Shown here: one piece after another, positions 7,756-64,000 of the stretch | Numbering within the stretch: position 1 is the stretch's first letter | Layout of the letters: each line of letters opens with the position of its first letter | Assembly (NCBI GenBank): GCA_016788665.1 | Contig: JAEUSF010000003.1 | Coordinates: 35,021-99,020 of the forward strand | Length of the DNA: 64,000 nt | DNA from: Candidatus Doudnabacteria bacterium | GTDB lineage: Bacteria; Patescibacteriota; Doudnabacteria; UBA920 | Direction: 5' to 3' | The notes under the pieces: model-generated | Told to the model about the DNA's origin: nothing | The model's input: the letters and a program-made list of their open reading frames with translations, nothing else | The model's database searches: none | Made by a program: the position numbers and the translations under genes

Positions 7756-10294
7756 AGTTTTGTTGTCAAAATATATAAAGCCTGAACGTTACAAGCTTTC
7801 AGTTAAGCCCAGTTTGGAAAATTTTGTTTTTGAAGGTAAAGAAATGGTGTATTTGGAATTGTTAAAACCCGTTAAAGAAATTACACTCCATGCAAAAGAT
7901 TTGAAAGTTACTGACGTAGAATTTAAAATTCGAAATTTAAAATTTCAAACGGTAAAAATTAAATACGACACAAAAGCTGAAACTGTGACTTTTGTGTTTA
8001 GTAAGGCATTGCTAAAAGGTAAGGGTGAGTTGTCTTTAAAGTTTAAAGGCGTGTTAAATGACTTTATGCGTGGTTTTTACCGAGGCAGTTACACGCACGA
8101 AGGTAAAAAACGTTATTTGGCTACCACCCAGTTTGAAGCGACTGATGCCCGCAGAGCTTTTCCATGTTTTGATGAACCGGCATTAAAAGCGGTATTTGAG
8201 GTTAGTATTATTTTGCCTTCTGGTATGACCGCTATTTCCAACACCGTTGAAACCTCAGTTAAAGAGCATGGAGGTGGTTATAAAATAGTAGAATTTTCCC
8301 CAAGTCCGAAAATGTCTACATATTTACTTGCATTTATAGTGGGGGATTTTGAACATATTGAGGGTAAAACAAAAAGGGGTGTAACTGTAAGAGTTTTTGT
8401 TACACCCGGGAAAAGGCATCAGGCCAAATTTGCTTTAGAGTGCGGTATAAAGACTTTGGATTTTTATGAAAAATATTTCGATATAAAATATCCTTTGCCA
8501 ATAATGGATATGATTGCAATTCCAGATTTCTCCCATGGGGCAATGGAGAATTGGGGCGCGGTGACTTATAGGGAGTCGGCTTTGCTGGTTGATCCTGAAA
8601 ATTCTTCCAGTGCTAACAAGCAGTGGGTGGCTTTGGTTATTGCCCACGAATTAGCTCATCAATGGTTTGGTAATTTGGTCACAATGCATTGGTGGACAGA
8701 TCTTTGGCTTAACGAAGGCTTCGCCTCCTATATTGAATATTTGGCTGTGGACCACCTGTTTCCTGCCTGGGACATCTGGACTCAGTTTGCTTATGTAGAT
8801 TTGGGAGCGGCTTTGCGCCTCGATGGTCTTAAAAATACTCATCCTATAGAAATTGAAGTAAAGCATCCTGACGAAATTGGGGAAATTTTTGACGAAGTTA
8901 GTTACTCTAAAGGCGCAAGTTTGATTCGGATGTTAGCCGATTATTTGGGAGAAAAAAACTTTCGAGATGGGCTTAGATACTATTTAAAAAAGCATGCTTA
9001 TAAAAACACTAGGACCACAGATTTATGGGATGCTTTTGAAGCAGTGTCTAAAAGACCGGTAAAATCTCTTATGCAGAATTGGACCAAAAAAGAGGGTTAC
9101 CCGCTGCTTAAAGTTACAGAGCGTCCTAAAGAAATTGTATTAGAGCAGTCAAGATTTTATATTTCACAAATTTCCAAACGCTCCTATGGTGACAAGACGC
9201 TCTGGCAGATTCCTATTAGTATAAAGTCGGCTGGGCAAAAAAAAGTTTCCAAGATTATACTGGATACAAAGTCGAAAATTATACCGAAGCCAAAAGGCTG
9301 GGTAAAATTTAACACGGAAGAGGCTGGATTCTTTAGGACTGACTATCCGGCCCAAATGCTCAAGCTTTTGCACCCGGCCATTATGCAAAAGAAGCTATCT
9401 GCCGTGGATAGGCTAGGTATTATTCGTGACGCCTTTGCTTTAGCCGAGAGTCAGGAGTTGCCTACTGCCGAAGCTCTGAGACTAGCAGAGAGCTATAAGA
9501 ATGAAACAGATTTTACCGTTTGGACAGAAATTTCTGCTGGTATAAATTCAGTTTACCAATTAATATGTGGACAACCGTACGAGGCCTTGTACAAAAAGAT
9601 GGCCAGTGAAGTTTTTAAGAAACAAGCTCTTTTATTGGGTTTTAGGCCAAAAAAAGGTGAAAGCCATACCGCTGGGTTGCTTCGGAGTTTGTTGCTAAAT
9701 AACTACGGCTCTTTTGGCGGGCAAGAGGTAGTAAAAAAAGCGAAAGAAATTTTTTCATCTGGAAAAGTACCTGCCGATATACGGGGCGTGGTTTATCAGT
9801 TGGTTGCTGAAAGCGGGGGAAAGAAAGAATTTCAAGCTTTGCTAAAGAAATATAAAACTGAAAGCTTAAATGAGGAAAAGAATCGGATAGGAAGGGCGTT
9901 GGCAAATTTTAAGCAGCCAGAAATAGTACGCGACGTTTTAGATTTGTGTTTAAGTGAGCACGTAAGGCTTCAGGACGCCCCGCTAATTTTAGCCTCAGTT
10001 ATGGTTAACCCACATGGAAGGGAAGAGGGTTTTAAATTCTTGAAAAAGAATTGGGGCGAGTTAAGCAGGCGTTATCCTTCCAGTGGGCATATGCTGGCGC
10101 GTGTAATAAAACCTTTGGGGCTATTTTCTTCACAAAAGCATTTAGGTCTTCTAAAAAAGTTTTTTAAGAATAAAAAGTCAGCAGGTCTTGGAAGGGCAAT
10201 TGAGCAAGTATTGGAAAAATGTGAACTTAATGTTTTATGGTTAAGGAACGAAAATATTAAAATAAAAAATTGGCTGGAAAAACAGGTTGGTTAA
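7748..10294 (+). CDS. pepN: Aminopeptidase N (M1 family zinc metallopeptidase)
   Basis: GAMENWG exopeptidase motif and HELAHQWFGNLVT...LWLNEGFASY zinc-binding HEXXH-X18-E. Confidence 0.9.
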   Translation: MNKVLLSKYIKPERYKLSVKPSLENFVFEGKEMVYLELLKPVKEITLHAKDLKVTDVEFKIRNLKFQTVKIKYDTKAETVTFVFSKALLKGKGELSLKFKGVLNDFMRGFYRGSYTHEGKKRYLATTQFEATDARRAFPCFDEPALKAVFEVSIILPSGMTAISNTVETSVKEHGGGYKIVEFSPSPKMSTYLLAFIVGDFEHIEGKTKRGVTVRVFVTPGKRHQAKFALECGIKTLDFYEKYFDIKYPLPIMDMIAIPDFSHGAMENWGAVTYRESALLVDPENSSSANKQWVALVIAHELAHQWFGNLVTMHWWTDLWLNEGFASYIEYLAVDHLFPAWDIWTQFAYVDLGAALRLDGLKNTHPIEIEVKHPDEIGEIFDEVSYSKGASLIRMLADYLGEKNFRDGLRYYLKKHAYKNTRTTDLWDAFEAVSKRPVKSLMQNWTKKEGYPLLKVTERPKEIVLEQSRFYISQISKRSYGDKTLWQIPISIKSAGQKKVSKIILDTKSKIIPKPKGWVKFNTEEAGFFRTDYPAQMLKLLHPAIMQKKLSAVDRLGIIRDAFALAESQELPTAEALRLAESYKNETDFTVWTEISAGINSVYQLICGQPYEALYKKMASEVFKKQALLLGFRPKKGESHTAGLLRSLLLNNYGSFGGQEVVKKAKEIFSSGKVPADIRGVVYQLVAESGGKKEFQALLKKYKTESLNEEKNRIGRALANFKQPEIVRDVLDLCLSEHVRLQDAPLILASVMVNPHGREEGFKFLKKNWGELSRRYPSSGHMLARVIKPLGLFSSQKHLGLLKKFFKNKKSAGLGRAIEQVLEKCELNVLWLRNENIKIKNWLEKQVG

Positions 10295-13185: not shown

Positions 13186-14271
13186 ATGGGAATTTTAGAT
13201 ACAATTATAACTACTAGACATAACGTTAACTTTCAGGAGTTTAAACCCGAAGAAACCTTGCGGGAAATTTTGTCTTTGGTCGAAAAAGAGCGTGATAAAA
13301 AAATTCTGCGTCATCGTTATGGACTCCAAGATAGCGAAGAAAAAACTTTGGCTGCTATAGGCGAGGAGCATAATTTAACTCGTGAAAGAGTTAGGCAGAT
13401 AGAAAAAGATATAATCAAGCATTTAAAAAAGAACTCTGGACGGAGCGATGCCTTTTTAAAGGCCAAAGATTTTCTTTTAAACATAGTTGCAGAACATGGC
13501 AGGGTAATTGCAGAAGAAAATTTGCTTTTAAGGCTTAATCTGCAAAATAGTTCTGAACGAAACGCAGTTATATTCCTGCTTCACTTAATTGAAGAATTGG
13601 ACCATTTTATACACGACAACTATAAAAAAGCCTGGGTTTATGTGCTTTTTAACAATGATTTGTTGCATAAGAGCATGGAAGTCAGTAAGAATATTTTAGA
13701 CCAAAAAGGTAAACCGCTTGCTTCTGAAGAATTTTTACAGCATTTTAAGGAAACTGAGTTTTATAAGGAAAATCAAGCCGAGCTTACGGACAAAGTAATT
13801 TTGAACTTTTTAAGCTTGGCTATTGAAATTGAAAAAAATGTGTTTGAAGAATGGGGACTTTTGAATTGGAAAGAGATTAAGCCCCGTGACGTGGGTGACA
13901 AGGCTTACTTGGTTATGAAAAATGGTAAAAAGCCTTTGCACTATGCAGAAATTACTGAACTTATAAACAAGGCCGGTTTTGACAATAGAAAAGCTTATAA
14001 GGAAACAGTACATAACGAGCTTATAAAAGACGCACGCTTTGTTTTGGTTGGACGAGGAATTTATGCTTTGTCTGAATGGGGGTACAAACCCGGTGTAGTG
14101 GCCGATGTTATAAAAGAAGTTTTACTGGATTTTAAGGAGCCTATTAGTCGTGAAAAAATTATTGAAGAAGTTTTAAAACGCAGGATGGTAAAAAAGAATA
14201 CTATTTTGGTCGGTCTTTCAAACCGCAAGTTTTTTACAAAAGTCGGAAAAAACCTGTATTCTTTAGCATAG
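13186..14271 (+). CDS. Putative transcription-associated protein: N-terminal sigma-70 region-4-like HTH plus C-terminal HARE-HTH winged helix
   Basis: AAIGEEHNLTRERVRQIEKDIIKHLKK resembles sigma-70 region 4.2. The C-terminal ...HNELIKDARFVLVGRGIYALSEWGY matches the HARE-HTH ending of RNAP delta subunit N-domains (RF..l..g.WgL..W). Confidence 0.5.
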   Translation: MGILDTIITTRHNVNFQEFKPEETLREILSLVEKERDKKILRHRYGLQDSEEKTLAAIGEEHNLTRERVRQIEKDIIKHLKKNSGRSDAFLKAKDFLLNIVAEHGRVIAEENLLLRLNLQNSSERNAVIFLLHLIEELDHFIHDNYKKAWVYVLFNNDLLHKSMEVSKNILDQKGKPLASEEFLQHFKETEFYKENQAELTDKVILNFLSLAIEIEKNVFEEWGLLNWKEIKPRDVGDKAYLVMKNGKKPLHYAEITELINKAGFDNRKAYKETVHNELIKDARFVLVGRGIYALSEWGYKPGVVADVIKEVLLDFKEPISREKIIEEVLKRRMVKKNTILVGLSNRKFFTKVGKNLYSLA

Positions 14272-15751: not shown

Positions 15752-17647
15752 ATGGATAATCAACCCAAAATTACCACATTTGCGAAAACAAACTTCCGGG
15801 GCAAGGAAGTGGCTTTTGGTATTAAGACCGACGACCGTAGACGGCATATGTACCTAATAGGTAAGACAGGTATGGGCAAAACCAGTTTAATGGAAAATAT
15901 GGTTATTCAGGATATTAGAAATGGCCACGGTGTTGCGTTTTTAGACCCACACGGCGACTCCGTTCAGCGCATACTAAACTGTATACCGCCCCACAGGGTT
16001 AACGATGTCGTGTATTTTAACCCAGCAGATTTGGAATTTCCTGTCGCATTCAATATTTTAGAAGCAGTAGATGCTAAGTATAAGCACTTGGTAGCCTCCG
16101 GACTTATGGGCGTGTTTACCAAAATTTGGGCAAATCTTTGGTCCGCCAGAATGGAATACATTTTAAACAACACCGTTTTAGCGTTGCTCGATAGCCCAGG
16201 TAATACATTGCTTGGTATAACCCGCATGTATGTAGACAAAAAATATCGAAAGAAAATAGTAGATAATATAAAAGACCCTGTTGTAAAAAGTTTTTGGGTC
16301 GATGAGTTTGCTAACTATAACGAAAAGTATAGAACCGAAGCCATTGCTCCTATTCAAAATAAGGTAGGGCAGTTTTTGTCGTCTGGGATTATACGCAACA
16401 TAGTTGGTCAGCCCAAAAGTACCATAGATTTGCGCGAGGTTATGGACAACCGGAAAATTTTAATTATGGACTTGTCTAAAGGCAAGGTGGGTGAGGATAA
16501 CTCGGCTTTGCTGGGGGCTATGATTGTTACCAAACTTCAGCTTGCTGCTATGTCCAGAACAGACATACCCGAGTCGGAACGTAAAGATTTTTATTTATAT
16601 GTAGACGAATTTCAAAATTTTGCAACAGACAGTTTTGCGACTATTCTTTCGGAAGCAAGAAAATATCGTTTAAACCTTATAGTCGGACACCAATATATTG
16701 CTCAATTGGAAAATGACAAAAATACTAAAGTTCGTGACGCAATATTTGGTAACGTGGGAACAATTGCAGTATTTAGAATTGGCGCAGCAGACGCCGAGTT
16801 TTTGGAAACTGAATTTGAGCCGATTTTTACACCAAACGATTTGGTGAATTTGCCAAAATACAATATTGTTTTAAAACTCATGATAAATGGCGTGGCCAGT
16901 GAGCCCTTCTCTGCAGTGACCCTTGCTCCCAACGACGCTTACCTAACCAATAATTCTGAGAAAGTTATACGAGTTTCCAGAGAAAGATATGCAAATCCGG
17001 TAGATGCGGTCGAGGAAAAAATAAGCCGCTGGATGGGAGCGGAATTTCATCAGGAATCTGCTGAAATGGTGGAGAGCGAGGAACAAGAAATAAAAGTTCC
17101 TACTCCTCAGGAAGAAATTGCTCCTTTGAATAATTCCGTTGTGCAAGTGACGCCTTTAACTATGTCTATGCCGGTAGAAGAGGAGCCGGCGCCTGCTGTG
17201 GTAGAAGAAAAGCAGGTTCTAAAGTTTGCCGAGCCGCCTCGAGAAGAACAAAGTTCAAAGTTTGTTAACTTTGAAGAACGAAAACCCAAAGAAGACAGAC
17301 CAAAGGGGTATAAACCTTCTTTAACTTTTAGACAGGATCCAGAATTTAAGCCTAAGCCTCAAAAATTTAACAGAGAAAAGATTTTTAAACATAGGGTAAA
17401 AGAGAAACCACAGAAAAAAGAAAATCCTATTTGGGATGCAGTTATTAAGGAGCAAAATCAAAAAAACCAAAATGCGCATAAGCGCTTGGAACAAAGTGTG
17501 AAAAGTTTGTTATCAGACGAAAAAGAGTTAGGACAACAATCTTCGCCTTCTTCCACGTCAACTCCTTCTGGTTTAGATGGTTCTGAAAAAAAACCTGACA
17601 CCTCGGTAAGGACCATTTTAAAGCCCAACAAGCCTGTTAGTTTTTAG
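15752..17647 (+). CDS. Type IV secretion coupling-protein-like ATPase (VirD4/TraD/TrwB family) with a roughly 200-aa disordered Glu/Lys/Pro-rich C-terminal tail
   Basis: Walker A IGKTGMGKTS and hydrophobic-D ILIMDLSKG. YLYVDEFQNF...ARKYRLNLIVGHQYIAQL resembles the TraD/TraG C-terminal (TraM-recognition) domain. Confidence 0.6.
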   Translation: MDNQPKITTFAKTNFRGKEVAFGIKTDDRRRHMYLIGKTGMGKTSLMENMVIQDIRNGHGVAFLDPHGDSVQRILNCIPPHRVNDVVYFNPADLEFPVAFNILEAVDAKYKHLVASGLMGVFTKIWANLWSARMEYILNNTVLALLDSPGNTLLGITRMYVDKKYRKKIVDNIKDPVVKSFWVDEFANYNEKYRTEAIAPIQNKVGQFLSSGIIRNIVGQPKSTIDLREVMDNRKILIMDLSKGKVGEDNSALLGAMIVTKLQLAAMSRTDIPESERKDFYLYVDEFQNFATDSFATILSEARKYRLNLIVGHQYIAQLENDKNTKVRDAIFGNVGTIAVFRIGAADAEFLETEFEPIFTPNDLVNLPKYNIVLKLMINGVASEPFSAVTLAPNDAYLTNNSEKVIRVSRERYANPVDAVEEKISRWMGAEFHQESAEMVESEEQEIKVPTPQEEIAPLNNSVVQVTPLTMSMPVEEEPAPAVVEEKQVLKFAEPPREEQSSKFVNFEERKPKEDRPKGYKPSLTFRQDPEFKPKPQKFNREKIFKHRVKEKPQKKENPIWDAVIKEQNQKNQNAHKRLEQSVKSLLSDEKELGQQSSPSSTSTPSGLDGSEKKPDTSVRTILKPNKPVSF

Positions 17648-21819: not shown

Positions 21820-21920
21820 AAAAAAAGTTATGTTAGTAAAAATGGATAAAAATGGGGACATGACCCATTAATTTAGATTCAATATTTTTTGGTTATGGCT
21901 ACGTATTGTACCTTTTTTGC

Positions 21921-21954
21921 ATTTACTCCAATACTAGATAGTATTGGAGTAAAT
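21921..21954. repeat. Perfect 15-bp inverted repeat with 4-bp spacer (ATTTACTCCAATACT agat AGTATTGGAGTAAAT), just upstream of the GC-rich island A promoter
   Basis: The arms are exact reverse complements. Sits in the 260-bp AT-rich spacer at the island boundary. Confidence 0.75.
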
Positions 21955-21988
21955 GTTAAGAATCGGTTTTATTTATTTTAAGTTGCCC

Positions 21989-22018
21989 TTGTAAAAAGTT
22001 AGCAAATGTTGTATAATG
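21989..22018 (+). promoter_or_regulatory. Candidate promoter (TTGTAA-18-TATAAT) for the PEP-CTERM gene, followed by a 9-bp-stem 5' UTR hairpin (22027-22062) and GGAGGG RBS
   Basis: Hexamers and the AAATCCTTC/GAAGGATTT inverted repeat read directly. RBS at 22068-22073, ATG at 22077. Confidence 0.35.
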
Positions 22019-22076
22019 CCCTAAACAAATCCTTCAAACCTCGCTAGGTTAAGAAGGATTTTATGTTGGAGGGAAA

Positions 22077-22583
22077 ATGATTCTGTTTGTCATGCTCTTG
22101 GCAGGTAGTATGCTAGGGGCCACTCTCTCGCTCGGTACGGGGCCGACCATAGAGGTTTCGAACTTCTCGGCCGGGACGTCCGAGTTTAGTGTCCAGGTTT
22201 CGCAGCCTGGGTACAACTTTGCTGGAGTAAAAATCCAGCCGCTTGCACCGGGTCTTGACCTGGTACTGAACTCGGCTACAGTGAACGGCAATGTCGCCAC
22301 CGGCTTTTCGGTGGGTTCTTTGGACGGGGCGAAGTACATAGCCCCGGACTCGGCAACGCTGCTGTTGCCCAACTTCGCTGTTGGGACGGTGGTGTTTAAC
22401 CTCACCGCTACAGGTGCGGTCGAGGGACAGAGCCCAAGCCAGCTCTTTATGGTTTTCTTGCAAAACCAGAACAGCTACGGCTTTACGGCGTATAACACCG
22501 CCGATTCTCCGGAGCCTGCAACCTGGGCGCTCGCAGGAGCTGTGCTCCTGGTGCTTGTGGCACTGGGCAAAAAACCTAGTTAG
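22077..22583 (+). CDS. Secreted protein with signal peptide and C-terminal PEP-CTERM-type sorting signal (SPEPATWALAGAVLLVLVALGKKPS*); GC-rich gene, probably foreign
   Basis: N-terminal hydrophobic signal peptide. C-terminus is PEP + hydrophobic helix + KK, as in exosortase substrates. Gene GC is about 57% against about 39% in the flanks. Confidence 0.55.
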   Translation: MILFVMLLAGSMLGATLSLGTGPTIEVSNFSAGTSEFSVQVSQPGYNFAGVKIQPLAPGLDLVLNSATVNGNVATGFSVGSLDGAKYIAPDSATLLLPNFAVGTVVFNLTATGAVEGQSPSQLFMVFLQNQNSYGFTAYNTADSPEPATWALAGAVLLVLVALGKKPS

Positions 22584-22614
22584 CCTTCCAACTTTTGTTC
22601 GGAGGCTTTTTTAT
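22583..22614 (+). terminator. Rho-independent terminator for the PEP-CTERM gene (GCCTTCC...GGAGGC then TTTTTT)
   Basis: Hairpin followed by a T-run immediately after the stop codon. Confidence 0.5.
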
Positions 22615-22652
22615 TTGCAAAAAAATACGCTGGCAACGGTTGTCGCCAGCGT
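22615..22652 (-). terminator. Rho-independent terminator for the minus-strand gene 22680..23177 (ACGCTGGC / GCCAGCGT 8-bp stem, T-run on the minus strand)
   Basis: Perfect 8-bp stem. The A-run on the plus strand is a T-run on the minus strand. Confidence 0.5.
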
Positions 22653-22679
22653 ACAGAAGTTTCGCGAAGAGGGTCGGTA

Positions 22680-23177
22680 CTACTCTTTGAAGATCGTGGG
22701 ATAGGCCTTTTTGGCCTTTTCCCAAGCGTCGACCAGAACCTTGGGCTCCGGCGACTTGAGAGTGAGATCGGTTTCCCGAATTACGCTCTTGAACCGCTCG
22801 CAGTCTTCGGTCTCGAACGGGAAGGCAGCTCCTTCCTTGCATCCCGACGTGACTTCAATTTGGAGGCTCGTCCGGCTGTCTTCCAGCATCCTTCTTACGA
22901 CTTGGATCACGGTTCTTTGCGAACCGATCATACGGTTGATGCTCTGCAGAACTTCATGGTCTCCGAAGACAAGTCCTTTTTCCAGATCCTGGCCGCTGAC
23001 TTTTAGCTTACTCTGGAAGGTTTGGAGCTTTCCGCTCCATTCTTTGATAACCCGGACTTCGTTCCGGGCCGTCTCCAGCCTCATCTTGCCCATTTGGGCA
23101 AGAGGGTCTTCCTGCCCAAAGGCCGCGGAGGCGGCCAATACCAACACCAACCACAACACGATCATAACGCGTTTCAT
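22680..23177 (-). CDS. GC-rich secreted hypothetical protein (signal peptide MKRVMIVLWLVLVLAASAAFGQ, two Cys)
   Basis: Convergent with the PEP-CTERM gene and of similar elevated GC. Its upstream region carries CTCTTCG..CGAAGAG / TTCGCGAA palindromes. Confidence 0.5.
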   Translation of the reverse strand: MKRVMIVLWLVLVLAASAAFGQEDPLAQMGKMRLETARNEVRVIKEWSGKLQTFQSKLKVSGQDLEKGLVFGDHEVLQSINRMIGSQRTVIQVVRRMLEDSRTSLQIEVTSGCKEGAAFPFETEDCERFKSVIRETDLTLKSPEPKVLVDAWEKAKKAYPTIFKE

Positions 23178-23429
23178 TTGCTCTCTCTTCTGGTAGTAGT
23201 GTCTCTTCGTATTCGCGAAGAGCAGGCTGTGGGCCTTCTAAAAGACCCTAAAACTGCTCTTCGCGAAAAATATAGGCCTCCTTATACTTGAGTGTAATTA
23301 TAGCATATTTAGAATAAAAAGTCAATGTGCTCGTACGTACAAAAAAAACTTATAAACATTGGTGTATATGAACCAGCTTAATATTTTAGATTTGGCTAAA
23401 AATATGGTAAAATTAATAATATTTTTGGC

Positions 23430-28221: not shown

Positions 28222-29835
28222 ATGATAAAGTATATAAAAATTTTGGAGTCAGATTTTACAGTTGGCAAAGCAGCTATTATTATTGGGTTTTTTAGTTTTG
28301 CGACAAAACTAGCAGCACTTTTTAGAGAAAGACTGTTTGCTTCTTATTTTGGCCAGGGCCCACTGCTCGATAGTTATTTTTCGGCTTTTCGTATACCGGA
28401 TTTTGTAACAAATTTGTTTGTTTTAAGTACTCTCTCGGTAGCTTTTTTGCCAGTATTTGCTAGGGAAAAAAAAGCCAGCAGGGAAGAAGCGGAAAAGTTT
28501 GCTAACACTTGTTTAGATTTTGGGCTTTTGTTTGTGGGGGCAGTGTGTCTGATTTTATTTGTTTTTTCTAAACCTATGACCCAATATTTGGTTCCGGGTT
28601 TCTCTGGCCAACAGCTACAAGATACGCTAAAGTTAACCCGTTTATTTTTGCTAACTCCAATTATTTTTACAGCTTCAACTATTTTTGGCGGAGTTTTAAA
28701 CGCGAAAAAAAAGTTTATAATAACCAGCTTGGCGCCACTGCTTTATAATTTGGGTATAATTTTCGGGATTGTTTTCTTATTTGGACGTTTTGGCATTTTG
28801 GGGCTAGGATATGGAGTTATTTTAGGGGCCTTGGCCCAGTTATTTGTTCAGGTTTACACGGTATGGTCGGGTGGCTTTTCTTTAAAATGGAGTTTTAATT
28901 CTAAGTTGCCGGCATTCCGCGAAATGTTGCAAATGTATTTGCCAAGAATTTTTACTTTTGACTTGGCAAATGTGACTTTGCTTCTAACCACAATTTTTGC
29001 GTCTTTGGTAGTGCCTGGATCTATAACCGCGGTGAATCAGTCTTTTAACTTACAGTCTGTTCCGATTGGAATATTTGCGTTTGCTTTGTCGTCGGCGGTG
29101 TTTCCGGTTTTTAGCGAACATTTTGCAAATAAAAACGAAATTGGGTATGCCAATAGTTTAAAAAAATCTGTACGTCAAATTTTGTTTCTAATGGTTCCCG
29201 CTACTGTTTTTCTGGTAATTTTTAGAGCTTACGTTGTTAGGCTTGTTTTAGGGGCGGGGAATTTTAGCTGGGAAGACACTGTCACAACTTTTACCTTTTT
29301 AGGTATTTTTGCTTTCTCGCTTGTAAGCCAGAGCCTTACCACTTTGCTTTCCAGGGCTTTTTTTGCAAGACATAATACCAAAACCCCTGTGAAGGCAAAC
29401 TTGGTGTCTGTGGCAATAAACATTGTTTTGTCTTATGTATTGTTTCAGAGGTTGGGTACGGAAGGTTTGGTTTTAGGATTTGTATTTTCTAGCATTTTTA
29501 ATGCATCGTACCTGGCTCTTTCCTTAAGGGATATACTGCGAAAACAGGCAGGTGTTCAGGTGGTTTATGAGTTAGAAAAATTTGTGCTTGTGGGTTTAAA
29601 TAAAATAATTATGTCTTCGGTCATAGGGGGCGCGGTTAGCTACGGCTTAATTTATGCTCTGGAGCCTTTTGTTTACACTAATACTTTTTTTGGTATATTG
29701 GTTCAGGCTGCATTAGCTGGAGCTGGTGGAGTTGCGGTATATTTGTTTGCCTCGTTTAAGTTAGGTTTAGTGGAGGCTCAGGCGGTATATATTGCAGTAA
29801 GTAAACTGCTGCCAAATAAAAAACCCTCTTTTTAA
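28222..29835 (+). CDS. murJ: Lipid II flippase MurJ (MviN)
   Basis: 14-TM MOP-superfamily protein with a MurJ-like N-terminus (FRERLFASYFGQGPLLDSYFSAFRIPDF). Confidence 0.9.
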   Translation: MIKYIKILESDFTVGKAAIIIGFFSFATKLAALFRERLFASYFGQGPLLDSYFSAFRIPDFVTNLFVLSTLSVAFLPVFAREKKASREEAEKFANTCLDFGLLFVGAVCLILFVFSKPMTQYLVPGFSGQQLQDTLKLTRLFLLTPIIFTASTIFGGVLNAKKKFIITSLAPLLYNLGIIFGIVFLFGRFGILGLGYGVILGALAQLFVQVYTVWSGGFSLKWSFNSKLPAFREMLQMYLPRIFTFDLANVTLLLTTIFASLVVPGSITAVNQSFNLQSVPIGIFAFALSSAVFPVFSEHFANKNEIGYANSLKKSVRQILFLMVPATVFLVIFRAYVVRLVLGAGNFSWEDTVTTFTFLGIFAFSLVSQSLTTLLSRAFFARHNTKTPVKANLVSVAINIVLSYVLFQRLGTEGLVLGFVFSSIFNASYLALSLRDILRKQAGVQVVYELEKFVLVGLNKIIMSSVIGGAVSYGLIYALEPFVYTNTFFGILVQAALAGAGGVAVYLFASFKLGLVEAQAVYIAVSKLLPNKKPSF

Positions 29836-30353
29836 ATGGGGTGGGGCAATTGGCCGCTGGGGTTTGCCGGCAGTGCAATGGGCAGGCCCATGTCCTTGCC
29901 CAGCTTGTCGGTAAGAGCTCGCGTCTCGGGGTACTGCTCGCCCTGCCTAAACAGGGCTTCTTGGTAGTTTCCAACAGCGCTGAGCAGGAAACTGAAAATG
30001 TTGGGTGAGAACCGGCCGCTTCTGCTTAGGCTGGTTTTGATGCTCCCTGCGTAGAACACAATGTTCTCGTACGACCTCTTTTCAACCCCCTGGTAAAACT
30101 TGTCACGAAGAGCTTGTAACTCTTCTTCGCTCGTTCCAAGCTTTGCGAGGTCACGAACGCCGGCTTTCGCCATTGTCCGCCAAATTTCGCCAATGGCGAG
30201 AACGGGGTCAGTGACGAGGCCGTCACGAAGTCCGCGCACGAGCTCGCAGGCCTGTGCGAGTTTGGTCTCTCTTTTTTCGCATTTGCTTGCGTACGCCTTT
30301 TGGGGCGCCCGCTAAAATTAGCGCGGTCAGCATGAGCGCTTTTACGAAATTCA
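29832..30353 (-). pseudogene. GC-rich secreted protein gene interrupted by a frameshift at an A6 homopolymer; restored product is about 173 aa with signal peptide MNFVKALMLTALILAGAP
   Basis: The signal-peptide frame (ATG at 30353, RBS AAGGAGGG 6 nt upstream) stops after 48 codons. Deleting one A in AAAAAAG joins it in frame to the 135-aa ORF 29832..30239. Its stop overlaps the murJ stop. Confidence 0.45.
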
Positions 30354-30460
30354 TTTTCTGATCCCTCCTTTTTGGGACTTTGGCTAGTTATCAGGAATTA
30401 TTGTTTAAGTCTAGAGCTTTAAGGCTTTATTCTTTTTGCTTTATTTGGTAAAATTGCCTT

Positions 30461-33331: not shown

Positions 33332-33481
33332 CTAGAGTTTGCCGATGATTAATTTGGCTGAAATGGCAATCGCTAAAGCTGTTGCAGCTGCGCCAAGCGC
33401 TACTTGGGCTGGAATGTTTAGGAGGAGCAAACTGCCAAGAGCCCCGGCTATGCCGACGCTAATACTAATGCATTTTCGCAT
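33332..33481 (-). CDS. 49-aa hydrophobic peptide (MRKCISISVGIAGALGSLLLLNIPAQVALGAAATALAIAISAKLIIGKL) with a perfect Shine-Dalgarno; not in the ORF track
   Basis: AGGAGG then 6 nt then ATG. Starts 10 nt after the stop of the 103-aa ORF 33492..33803 on the same strand. One to two predicted TM helices rich in small residues. Confidence 0.45.
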   Translation of the reverse strand: MRKCISISVGIAGALGSLLLLNIPAQVALGAAATALAIAISAKLIIGKL

Positions 33482-33491
33482 TCGATTCCTC

Positions 33492-33803
33492 CTAACTACT
33501 CATGCACAGTGGTGGCAGGTCATCCAGTGGCGATTCGCGGAACTTGGTTGGTATGCAACCGTGAGTCAGGATCGCGAGAACATACCAGCAGAATGTAGCA
33601 AACCTAACTGTCCTCCTCTGTCCTGCAATGGATAGCTCCCACGACAGCTCTGCTTCCATTGTGTGGTTTTCCCACTCGAAGACCAAGGCTGTTCTGTTGG
33701 CGAGAAGCGCCAGGTCATGATCGGTTTGTTGTGACATCGGCAAGCTTTCAAACGCTTGCCAACATTTTACAAGGTTGCTATAGCTAAGCCGAAAACTGAA
33801 CAT
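33492..33803 (-). CDS. Hypothetical protein (103 aa, possibly 81 aa from the internal Met MSQQTDHD...), first gene of a two-gene minus-strand unit in a GC-elevated patch
   Basis: ORF in a roughly 50% GC segment. TATAAT lies 8 nt upstream of its ATG on the minus strand. No recognisable domain. Confidence 0.4.
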   Translation of the reverse strand: MFSFRLSYSNLVKCWQAFESLPMSQQTDHDLALLANRTALVFEWENHTMEAELSWELSIAGQRRTVRFATFCWYVLAILTHGCIPTKFRESPLDDLPPLCMSS

Positions 33804-47615: not shown

Positions 47616-47995
47616 TAAACCATTCGCTAACGCTCAGGTATATGGCGCGGTCATAAGTCGCGTTTTGAGTGTTGCGACCATTTGTTTATATTGGCGAATG
47701 GTTTATGACCTTACTCGGCCCCGTTTTGGCGGGAGAGTGTTTAGGGCATGAAGGCGACAAATATAATAGCAAAATCGTGACAGATTTTTCCCGCTGTCCG
47801 CGGGATTTATTTTGTTCGTAATTACGCGTGGCGGTCACGCTTAACGTGACTGTTGCCGCGCTTAGCGCGGCGGAGTAGCTGAAGTGTTACCCGCCCGAAC
47901 GTACCCCGCCAGAATGAAACTTTCGGGCTAGCGTTCGGTACGGGCGAGGAGCGTGGGACTCATAAGTCACCTAAGTGATCCGGGGTTTCTATAAT

Positions 47996-48029
47996 ATGTT
48001 TTATGCATATGTTTTATGCATATGTTTTA
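47996..48029. repeat. Tandem repeat, 13-bp unit ATGTTTTATGCAT x2.6
   Basis: Read directly (atgttttatgcat atgttttatgcat atgtttta). Confidence 0.8.
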
Positions 48030-48248
48030 AAGAACACTAAAGGAATTCTATATAAAGGATCAACGGATAATTTAGAATAAAGGAGCATAACTCAAAATTA
48101 TTTAAGTCATTCACGAGAGGTAGGGGAGCATGGATACTTGTGTATTTTGAAGAGTTTAACACTAGGCGAGAGGCGGAAATACGAGAAAAGTATTTTAAGT
48201 CTAAAGCTGGGTGGTTCTATTTTAAAAATACGTTACATCTATTATAAT

Positions 48249-48325
48249 GGCGGAGTAGCTCAGTTAGTTAGAGCGTGGGACTCATAAGCCCAAGGTCGGT
48301 GGTGCAATTCCACCCTCCGCTACCA
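48249..48325 (+). tRNA. tRNA-like gene with CAT anticodon (Met or Ile2/lysidine type), atypical T-loop (G at position 55); preceded by TATAAT
   Basis: 77-nt cloverleaf: acceptor GGCGGAG/CTCCGCT (G1:U72 wobble), D arm GCTC-AGTTAGTTA-GAGC, anticodon loop CUCAUAA, T arm GGTGG-TGCAATT-CCACC, CCA encoded. Confidence 0.5.
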
Positions 48326-48334
48326 AAACACTTT

Positions 48335-48388
48335 GGGACTCATAAGTCACTTAAGTGATCGGTGGTGCAATTCCACCCTCCGCTACCA
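48335..48388 (+). repeat. Partial tandem copy of the tRNA(CAT)-like gene: the anticodon-loop segment and the T arm/acceptor 3' end, interrupted by the palindrome GTCACTTAAGTGAT
   Basis: GGGACTCATAAG then TCACTTAAGTGATC then GGTGGTGCAATTCCACCCTCCGCTACCA. Identical to the 48249 gene except for the insert. Confidence 0.55.
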
Positions 48389-48498
48389 GTCTTCGCTAAA
48401 GCCACGGCTGGCTATGGCCAGCAATATCTAAAGAAGGCTGTCCGACGAAGTCACCTAAGTGACGAAGTTGGACATACATTTAGTCTATAAATTTACAT

Positions 48499-48575
48499 GG
48501 GACCGTAGCTCAATTGGTTAGAGCACTCGCCTGTCACGCGAGAGGTTACGGGTTCGAGCCCCGCCGGTCCCGCCA
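48499..48575 (+). tRNA. tRNA-Asp (anticodon GTC)
   Basis: Acceptor GGGACCG/CGGTCCC, anticodon stem CTCGC/GCGAG with loop CUGUCAC, T arm ACGGG-TTCGAGC-CCCGC, CCA encoded. Confidence 0.85.
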
Positions 48576-48584
48576 TTAGAAAAT

Positions 48585-48612
48585 GCCTCACCTTTATGGT
48601 GGGGCTTTTTCT
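48585..48612 (+). terminator. Rho-independent terminator after tRNA-Asp (GCCTCACC / GGTGGGGC then TTTTT)
   Basis: 8-bp stem including one G-U pair, then a T-run. Confidence 0.5.
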
Positions 48613-48664
48613 ATGGTTAGAGTGGGCGAAAAGTTTATCCGCCGTAGTTTTAGCGAAGGAGGAA

Positions 48665-48683
48665 GCCCCGCCGGTCCCGCCAG
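48665..48683 (+). repeat. 19-nt direct repeat of the tRNA-Asp 3' end (AGCCCCGCCGGTCCCGCCA), 90 bp downstream of the gene; att-like scar
   Basis: Exact copy of tRNA positions 48557-48575. Confidence 0.6.
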
Positions 48684-48825
48684 TAGAAAACCATCTTGCT
48701 TAAGATGGTTATTAGGGCCTAGGCAGGTTAGAGCTGCGGCTGAAACTATATGCTAAAATTATCCTATCAGCCCAAGAGAAAATCAAAGCCTTAAAAGAAG
48801 TAGCTAAAATATTAAGATAAAACTT

Positions 48826-62365: not shown

Positions 62366-64000
<1,635 letters not shown>

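Follow-up and report, generated by a model that had tools for sequence, protein, structure and literature searches.

In a 64,000-nt stretch of a metagenome-assembled genome (MAG) of Candidatus Doudnabacteria (contig JAEUSF010000003.1, positions 35,021 to 99,020; hereafter, the window), two convergent genes, P1 and P2, form an island rich in guanine plus cytosine (GC) inside a region of cell-envelope genes. An initial annotation had read this island as a foreign-looking cassette encoding a PEP-CTERM protein and had offered three origins for it: a recent acquisition from a high-GC Gram-negative donor, an orphan sorting signal, or an assembly chimera. Our analysis favors, with a probability of roughly 0.6, a native, vertically inherited, and lineage-specific cell-envelope gene pair of this member of the candidate phyla radiation (CPR) over a foreign insertion. 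P1 is most likely a surface protein with a predicted immunoglobulin-like (Ig-like) domain and a simple C-terminal membrane anchor, and P2 is most likely a secreted protein modeled as a helical bundle. Both proteins appear to be made from stabilized mRNAs.

Conservation of the gene pair in divergent genomes

P1 (168 aa) occupies positions 22,077–22,583 of the plus strand and ends in ...DSPEPATWALAGAVLLVLVALGKKPS; its GC content is 0.566 and its GC content at third codon positions (GC3) is 0.66. P2 (165 aa) occupies positions 22,680–23,177 of the minus strand, convergent to P1, with a GC content of 0.536 and a GC3 of 0.68. The NCBI entry for the MAG places the two genes on a 127-kb contig and labels their products as hypothetical proteins (JNN11_02135 and JNN11_02140). 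When 5.8 billion protein clusters were searched, relatives of P1 and P2 were found only in two other assemblies, the 1.4-kb Logan contig L001 and the 9.9-kb NCBI contig CAZGAF010000032.1 (L002). The L001 proteins were 83% (P1) and 74% (P2) identical to those of the window, and the promoters, leaders, and terminators of L001 were as in the window. The L002 copy of P2 was 53% identical, and the contig stops inside P1, of which the tail YNTADSPEPATWALAASVLLILAALGKKGPAS remains. In L002 the cassette adjoins murD in the same divergent arrangement and is followed by murD, ftsW, the DUF4012 gene, murJ, and lepA, as in the window.

The number of synonymous substitutions per synonymous site (dS) in P2 was approximately 0.9–1.1 among the three assemblies, and the P2 proteins were 53–74% identical; thus, the three assemblies represent different organisms. 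Core proteins of the window and L002 were 69–91% identical, with dS values from 1.6 to saturation and third-position identities of 47–51%. Because the cassette occupies the same site despite saturated synonymous divergence, it must be older than the deep split between these lineages. The ratio of nonsynonymous to synonymous divergence (dN/dS) was 0.24 for P1 and 0.20–0.34 for P2, which indicates that both are functional genes.

The family could not be enlarged beyond the three genomes, since the further searches added no new member. Exact-sequence look-ups of P1, P2, and P0001 returned no record, and two metagenome scans (one with a P2 profile, one with a 24-nt terminator core) returned nothing. 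A scan of genome collections returned the L002 contig alone. No match to the island proteins was found among viral contigs, plasmids, phages, and PHROGs. When HMMER was run exhaustively over 1.84 billion representatives with P1 as the query, it recovered P1 itself and two spurious repeat proteins only; the latter, a translated tandem repeat and a Listeria-Bacteroides repeat protein, were rejected, their scores being summed over repeats. Signatures of mobility were also sought: there was no integrase, there were no notable flanking direct repeats, and the nearest tRNA gene was at 38.4 kb. The patchy presence expected of an acquired island was not seen among the two or three relatives available.

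Two further observations concern L001 and L002. L002 is labeled Candidatus Saccharibacteria and the window MAG Candidatus Doudnabacteria; given the 69–91% identity of their core proteins and their perfect synteny, one of the two taxonomic labels is probably wrong. A long palindrome (CACAAGGGGAATCCTTGT...ACAAGGATTCCCCTTGTG) is present in L002 at 9,020–9,062, between the P2 promoter and murD, and in L001 at 1,395–1,426, and is missing from the window. The Logan contig probably breaks where it does because of this palindrome.

Composition of the coding sequences

The mean GC content of 200-nt windows over the 64 kb was 0.391 (standard deviation 0.055), whereas the stretch 22,021–23,280 had a mean of 0.53 and a peak of 0.605. 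The GC-rich segment of the initial annotation (approximately 57% GC in a 39% GC cluster) is therefore real and slightly less extreme than described: positions 22,077–23,177 have 54% GC, compared with 39% for the window. The excess does not reach past the start and stop codons; the GC contents of the P1 and P2 promoters and leaders are 0.34–0.40. A shift confined to the coding sequences is not what the transfer of a whole cassette predicts.

The island is one of at least two such islands in the window. The second, at approximately 29,750–30,400 (GC content 0.56, GC3 0.65), is flanked by murJ and lepA and codes for P3 (29,832–30,354, minus strand), a further helical, secreted orphan. With this island and a weaker one at 33,332–33,803, the cassette is not unique in the window. 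In the window, the P3 frame is broken between an ORF (open reading frame) for the signal peptide (30,223–30,354) and an ORF for the mature protein (29,832–30,239); the NCBI annotation contains no more than a 113-aa fragment. In L002 (2,012–2,506) the gene is intact, encodes 164 aa, occupies the same position, and is 65% identical (GC3 0.64; dN/dS 0.14). P3 homologues were found only in the window and L002 genomes.

All seven island genes of the three genomes had a GC3 of 0.64–0.69, compared with 0.25–0.43 in host genes, and their first and second codon positions (GC1 and GC2) were likewise above those of the host. The codon shift was alike in the window and L002: AAC, TAC, GAC, TTC, ATC, CTC/CTG, GCC, GGC, and CGG were used more, and TTA was almost gone from the island genes. 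By the atypical composition by which genomic islands are recognized, P1 and P2 would thus be classed as one (GC content of 0.54 vs. 0.39; GC3 of 0.66–0.68 vs. 0.25–0.43). Two simple causes of the high GC3 were considered and set aside. Antisense overlapping genes were rejected because neither L001 nor L002 keeps the antisense frames over P2 open, and an open antisense frame over P1 is to be expected where TTA, CTA, and TCA codons are avoided. Translational selection alone was rejected as well, since the shift takes in G-ending codons, CGG, GC1, and GC2.

Equilibrium of third-position composition and folding of the messages

Third-position changes of P2 in the window and L001 lineages, polarized by L002, comprised 19 changes from GC to AT and 17 from AT to GC, compared with a ratio of approximately 4:1 expected under decay toward a GC3 of 0.36. 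In a nonstationary two-state likelihood model, the equilibrium GC3 of P2 was 0.63 for all third positions and 0.74 for codons whose amino acid had not changed. Both fits rejected the host value of 0.36 (P = 0.007 for all third positions; P = 0.017 for the synonymous-only set). These results lend moderate support to the view that the composition of the island coding sequences has been held at an equilibrium of its own in at least two long-separated lineages.

The native coding sequences of the islands were predicted to form more stable folds than synonymous shuffles of them (z between −0.85 and −4.67, mean −2.95), and the same test on 18 host control genes gave a mean z of −0.68 (standard deviation 1.4). 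The difference was significant when all six island genes, which are not independent, were used (Mann-Whitney test, P = 0.002), and was at P = 0.05 for the three window genes alone.

The cause that we prefer is selection at the nucleotide or mRNA level, which may favor stable, highly structured messages and may act together with biased gene conversion; biased gene conversion is the alternative to mRNA selection. We propose tentatively, at somewhat less than even odds, that P1, P2, and P3 keep a gene-specific equilibrium GC3 of approximately 0.65 in a genome of approximately 0.36, in their coding sequences only, through mRNA selection or a localized conversion bias.

P1, its expression signals, and its C-terminal tail

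The P1 protein consists of a hydrophobic, signal-like N-terminal segment (MILFVMLLAGSMLGATLSLG, which lacks a charged n-region), a predicted Ig-like beta-sandwich, and a C-terminal anchor. Its structure model reached only moderate confidence (predicted local distance difference test score, pLDDT, of 60), and the nearest structural matches of the Ig-like model, LPXTG adhesin and pilin domains, are generic.

The promoter, the 5′ untranslated region (UTR) hairpin, and the GGAGGG ribosome-binding site that the initial annotation gave for this gene are all present. The promoter (TTGTAA-17-TATAAT; 21,989–22,017, plus strand) has 10 of 12 consensus matches and is identical in L001. The leader hairpin (AAATCCTTC...GAAGGATTT; 22,019–22,073, plus strand) has a predicted folding energy of −21.4 kcal/mol (z = −3.75) and is kept in L001; in its outer stem, CCCU pairs with part of the ribosome-binding site (22,068–22,073). 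An intrinsic terminator follows at 22,583–22,612 on the plus strand, with a 10-bp stem, a TTTT loop, a T run, and a consensus fold over the three genomes. Together with the terminator of P2 it forms back-to-back hairpins between the two stop codons, as expected from the earlier description of two convergent genes with a terminator each.

A mini-ORF (ATG TTG GAG GGA AAA TGA) is found at 22,063–22,080, its stop codon overlapping the start of P1. The L001 counterpart (GTG TTG GAG GGA TAA) overlaps the L001 ATG. This mini-ORF, which contains the ribosome-binding site, may be a coincidence or a coupling device.

The inverted repeat that had been placed at the left boundary of the cassette does exist (21,913–21,962, neither strand assigned), downstream of the amidohydrolase gene. 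It has 24-nt arms (21,913–21,936 and 21,939–21,962) that are 88% complementary across a 2-nt spacer, and by eye a perfect core of 16 nt (21,921–21,936 and 21,939–21,954). As an island border it was rejected: it lies upstream of the P1 promoter, outside the unit that is conserved in L001, and the L001 copy lacks it.

The extreme C-terminus of P1 has the layout of a PEP-CTERM-like tail (PEPATWALAGAVLLVLVALGKKPS; 22,509–22,580, plus strand), with a PEP motif, a 17-residue hydrophobic transmembrane (TM) helix, and a basic end (SPEPATWALAGAVLLVLVALGKKPS) of which the basic part is only KK. L001 and L002 keep this layout, and YNTADSPEP does not vary among the three orthologues, though P2 identity among these genomes falls to only 53%. 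No other stop-to-stop ORF of at least 60 aa in the window had a P[ED]P motif with a hydrophobic tail. Scores against PF07589 were 15.6 bits for full-length P1, 20.2 bits for the tail alone (just below the gathering score of 20.7), and 15.6 bits for the L002 tail; the L001 orthologue (PEPANFLL...) gave no hit. P1 gave no hit to TIGR02595 and scored 7.1 bits against the NF035944 (PEPxxWA-CTERM) model, for which the cutoff is 35; its PEPATWA literally matches the PEPxxWA variant. By the condition that the initial annotation set for giving up its PEP-CTERM call, the lack of a model hit, the call is a borderline failure that points clearly in neither direction, sound as to the tripartite layout and the conserved motif, below every curated threshold, and without a hit in one orthologue. 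P1 was therefore not filed as a PEP-CTERM protein; it may nonetheless behave as tripartite anchors do, in the simplest case as a stop-transfer membrane anchor.

As stated before, no exosortase was found in the 64 kb, and neither an exosortase nor a sortase was present among the scanned proteins of the window. P1 showed neither an LPXTG motif nor a hit to an LPXTG model, and we found no literature that links exosortases with CPR lineages. PEP-CTERM proteins occur only in bacteria that have an outer membrane and genes for exopolysaccharide (EPS), with an EpsH homologue in every positive genome and usually several copies per genome (median 8; PMC1569441). They typically lack homology to known proteins, and LPXTG anchors are among the top noise hits of the PEP-CTERM model (PMC1569441).

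With the substrates of exosortases (EpsH, XrtA; PMC1569441), P1 shares a putative signal sequence, an orphan-like passenger, the Pro-Glu-Pro motif and its conservation, the helix, and the basic end. It differs from them in falling below all cutoffs, in ending in KK and not in an Arg-rich segment, in its single copy in 64 kb, in the lack of an exosortase in view, and in its CPR host, since the known system goes with an outer membrane and EPS loci (PMC1569441). The tripartite anchors of the LPXTG/sortase type in monoderms are also similar, with a motif, a TM helix, and a positive tail, and the passenger of P1 is predicted to be Ig-like; unlike those anchors, P1 has no LPXTG motif or model hit, and no sortase was found among the scanned window proteins.

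P2 and its untranslated regions

P2 has a signal peptide (...AAFG/QED) followed by a helical bundle with two invariant cysteines (C113 and C126). The AlphaFold2 model is a confident helical bundle (pLDDT 87.5); its fold matches (TBCA, Smac, and spectrin repeats) are generic helical bundles only and were discarded as uninformative.

The P2 promoter (TTGACT-17-TATAAT with an upstream TG; 23,297–23,325, minus strand) has 11 of 12 consensus matches and is kept in L001 and L002. It is followed by a leader of approximately 120 nt (23,178–23,296, minus strand) with a predicted folding energy of −38.4 kcal/mol (z = −4.43). Near the predicted 5′ end of this leader is a Shine-Dalgarno-like AAGGAGG (23,277–23,283) that is perfectly conserved and has no start codon after it. 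Next comes a hairpin (23,212–23,267) in which a 14-bp outer stem encloses a 7-bp inner stem that covaries, two of its pairs being compensatory. An alternative hairpin (CTCTTCGnnnnCGAAGAG, in which CTCTTCG...CGAAGAG can pair) and the ribosome-binding site GAAGAGAG complete the leader. The intrinsic terminator of P2 (22,615–22,654, minus strand) has a 13-bp stem and a T run, and its core of approximately 30 nt is identical in all three genomes.

Between the stop codon and the terminator, the 3′ UTR contains the element TTTCGCGAAGAG in plus-strand reading (CUCUUCGCGAAA in the mRNA; 22,660–22,671, minus strand), which holds one TTCGCGAA palindrome. This element is perfectly complementary over 12 nt to positions 23,257–23,268 of the 5′ UTR, and the complementarity is conserved in L001 and L002. 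All three TTCGCGAA palindromes of the 64 kb flank P2 (22,660–22,671, 23,212–23,222, and 23,257–23,268). The palindromes and the 12-nt complementarity may serve a dimeric regulator as its operator or mediate contact between RNAs.

The noncoding segments of the island were 83–84% identical between the window and L002 (83% for the P2 leader plus promoter, 23,178–23,330), compared with 47–56% at third positions and 55% in the murD-ftsW spacer. Identity so far above that of third positions indicates that the regulatory elements of the island are strongly constrained. No real Rfam family was matched; an Rfam mir-558 match at 23,205–23,275 (29 bits, gathering score 90) was rejected as a mere reflection of the P2 leader hairpin.

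Known 5′ stabilizers of abundant bacterial mRNAs include the 5′-terminal stem-loops of ompA and aprE and the STAB-SD element of cryIIIA. The island leaders resemble them in their stable, conserved hairpins near the predicted 5′ ends and in the AAGGAGG of P2 that lacks a start codon. They differ in that P2 also has the three palindromes and the 12-nt complementarity between its 5′ and 3′ UTRs.

Proposed expression and localization of P1 and P2

Each gene would form a transcription unit of its own, read from a near-consensus promoter of the sigma-70 type whose match and conservation are as given above and whose activity is presumed. Each mRNA opens with a conserved, stable predicted leader structure, to which P2 adds the noninitiating AAGGAGG near the 5′ end of its leader. 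By their sequence, their predicted fold, and a conservation far above neutral, the leaders are candidates for an mRNA stabilizer or a translational control element. The back-to-back terminators would shield the pair and block transcription that runs on from mraY and the amidohydrolase gene, and murD would be transcribed anew from promoter-like sites of its own. Taken together, the strong predicted promoters, 5′ structures, terminators, and GC-rich structured messages fit selection that may favor stable and abundant mRNAs.

Both products are predicted to be exported by their N-terminal signal sequences. CPR bacteria are regarded as lacking an outer membrane, and the Ig-like beta-sandwich of P1 would be exposed on the outside of the single membrane, held by the C-terminal helix with the KK inside; the PEP-CTERM-like tail would then act as a plain stop-transfer anchor. 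P2 would be a soluble bundle of three or four helices that carries a conserved pair of cysteines and is released to the wall zone. To judge by the conserved pairing of the two genes, it may be a partner of P1.

Comparison with other explanations

The sharp change in composition is the one observation that speaks for a recent acquisition in this genome, or for GC-rich DNA joined to a CPR contig in assembly or binning. Against it, the cassette occurs in three independent assemblies from different samples and different, divergent organisms, and every one of them shows the same AT-rich promoters, leaders, and terminators attached to the GC-rich coding sequences; L002 repeats the junction with murD as well. 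The chimera is thereby refuted. The islands at the same sites in the deeply diverged L002 and the lack of a donor homologue in protein clusters, representatives, plasmids, phages, and viral contigs speak against a recent transfer from a Gram-negative donor, and we regard this whole class of explanation as extremely improbable. An old transfer into the common ancestor from a donor of very high GC content, with a slow decay toward host composition still under way, fares better and is nevertheless unlikely. It would account for the atypical composition and codon usage, including the raised GC1 and GC2, and for the orphan proteins; a back-calculation by hand permits an ancestral GC3 of approximately 0.8–0.95, and fits with a fixed equilibrium need a root GC3 of approximately 0.8. 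It is opposed by the fitted equilibrium GC3 of 0.63–0.74 with 0.36 rejected, by the lack of an excess of GC-to-AT changes, and by a GC shift that ends exactly at the ends of the coding sequences, the promoters and leaders being host-like. Moreover, the same shift at two or more separate loci would need more than one such transfer, and no donor homologue, integrase, flanking direct repeat, or adjacent tRNA gene was found. Compared with acquired genomic islands in general, P1 and P2 are alike in the sharp deviation (approximately +15 points of GC and +0.3 of GC3) and in encoding orphan surface proteins, and unlike them in a position conserved across saturated divergence, in the lack of mobility genes, flanking repeats, and a tRNA target, in a shift of the coding sequences only, and in substitutions that are at equilibrium rather than decaying.

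A different question is whether P1 is a true PEP-CTERM-type substrate that is cleaved at PEP by an enzyme of the exosortase/archaeosortase family, or by one of unknown kind, with its gene in another part of the genome. The order of elements (a putative signal peptide, then PEP, a TM helix, and a basic end), the invariant YNTADSPEP, the near-threshold score of the tail, the PEPxxWA match, and a lack of known homologues that is typical of PEP-CTERM proteins (PMC1569441) argue for it. Every curated threshold was missed, the L001 orthologue gave no hit, the tail is the only one of its kind among the ORFs of the 64 kb, and no exosortase or sortase was detected in the window; in addition, the known system is confined to bacteria that combine an outer membrane with EPS genes and EpsH, usually in many copies, its model draws LPXTG anchors as noise (PMC1569441), and we found no paper that ties exosortases to CPR lineages. 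We consider such a substrate doubtful, a shade less probable than an old transfer, and at least as doubtful a working signal of the PEP-CTERM type in a bacterium that lacks an outer membrane, served by an enzyme not yet recognized. The orphan sorting signal of the initial annotation is likewise a weak option, with a conserved architecture and scores under the cutoffs.

Several points weigh against the favored explanation of a native gene pair with an anchored P1 and a maintained composition. The family comprises three genomes only, and P2 alone has three full sequences; with so few sequences, the equilibrium test rests on 165 sites (82 in the synonymous-only set) and on a simplified two-state model. 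Decay from an ancestral GC3 of approximately 0.8–0.95 is disfavored and, by rough hand calculation, mathematically possible. The folding signal overlaps that of the controls, 4 of 18 of which had z ≤ −2. The conservation of the PEP motif could point to a role beyond passive anchoring, and the P1 model has a pLDDT of 60 and a signal sequence without a charged n-region.

Atypical GC content and codon usage are routinely taken as signs of horizontal transfer or contamination, above all in MAGs. Here, they mark native, syntenic genes under purifying selection, and the substitution pattern suggests that they are maintained. The apparent maintenance of GC-richness in coding sequences only, based on three genomes, is moderately surprising. 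If it is true, then "native compositional islands" mimic horizontal transfer, and composition-based transfer calls and contamination filters would wrongly drop lineage-specific surface proteins, which are the likeliest mediators of the episymbiotic lifestyle of CPR bacteria. The case supplies concrete candidate surface and secreted proteins and very strongly conserved leader elements. A PEP-CTERM-type signal without an outer membrane, if true, would widen the known range of that system; the present evidence does not support it.

Gene neighborhood and other GC-rich stretches

Pfam scans gave the following order for this cell-envelope region: an S11 D-Ala-D-Ala carboxypeptidase, MraY, an Amidohydro_3 protein, the P1/P2 island, MurD, FtsW, DUF4012, MurJ, the P3 island, LepA, and then DivIC, a PpiC-type peptidyl-prolyl isomerase, and glutamate racemase. 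The names FtsW and MurJ were taken from precomputed Pfam hits on the L002 orthologues, and that of LepA from Pfam hits on the L002 orthologue, which is 91% identical to the window copy. The multi-pass membrane proteins of the 64 kb are SecD, SecF, MraY, FtsW, MurJ, and ATP synthase subunit a, together with one unassigned 125-aa orphan that has four TM segments. Just upstream of the peptidoglycan genes are a protein with sigma-70 region 4 and HARE-HTH domains (13,186–14,271) and a VirD4/TrwB-like type IV coupling ATPase (15,752–17,647).

The weaker third stretch of raised GC content (33,332–33,803, minus strand; approximately 0.50) contains an ORF for a 49-aa hydrophobic peptide and a 103-aa ORF, neither of which matched Pfam or Rfam. 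Two more stretches with GC contents of 0.50–0.56 lie at 47,616–48,760 and 63,421–63,840, between genes for tRNA-Met, tRNA-Met, and tRNA-Asp and near the end of the window. They contain no long ORF and no Rfam family at the gathering score, and could be unannotated structured RNAs.

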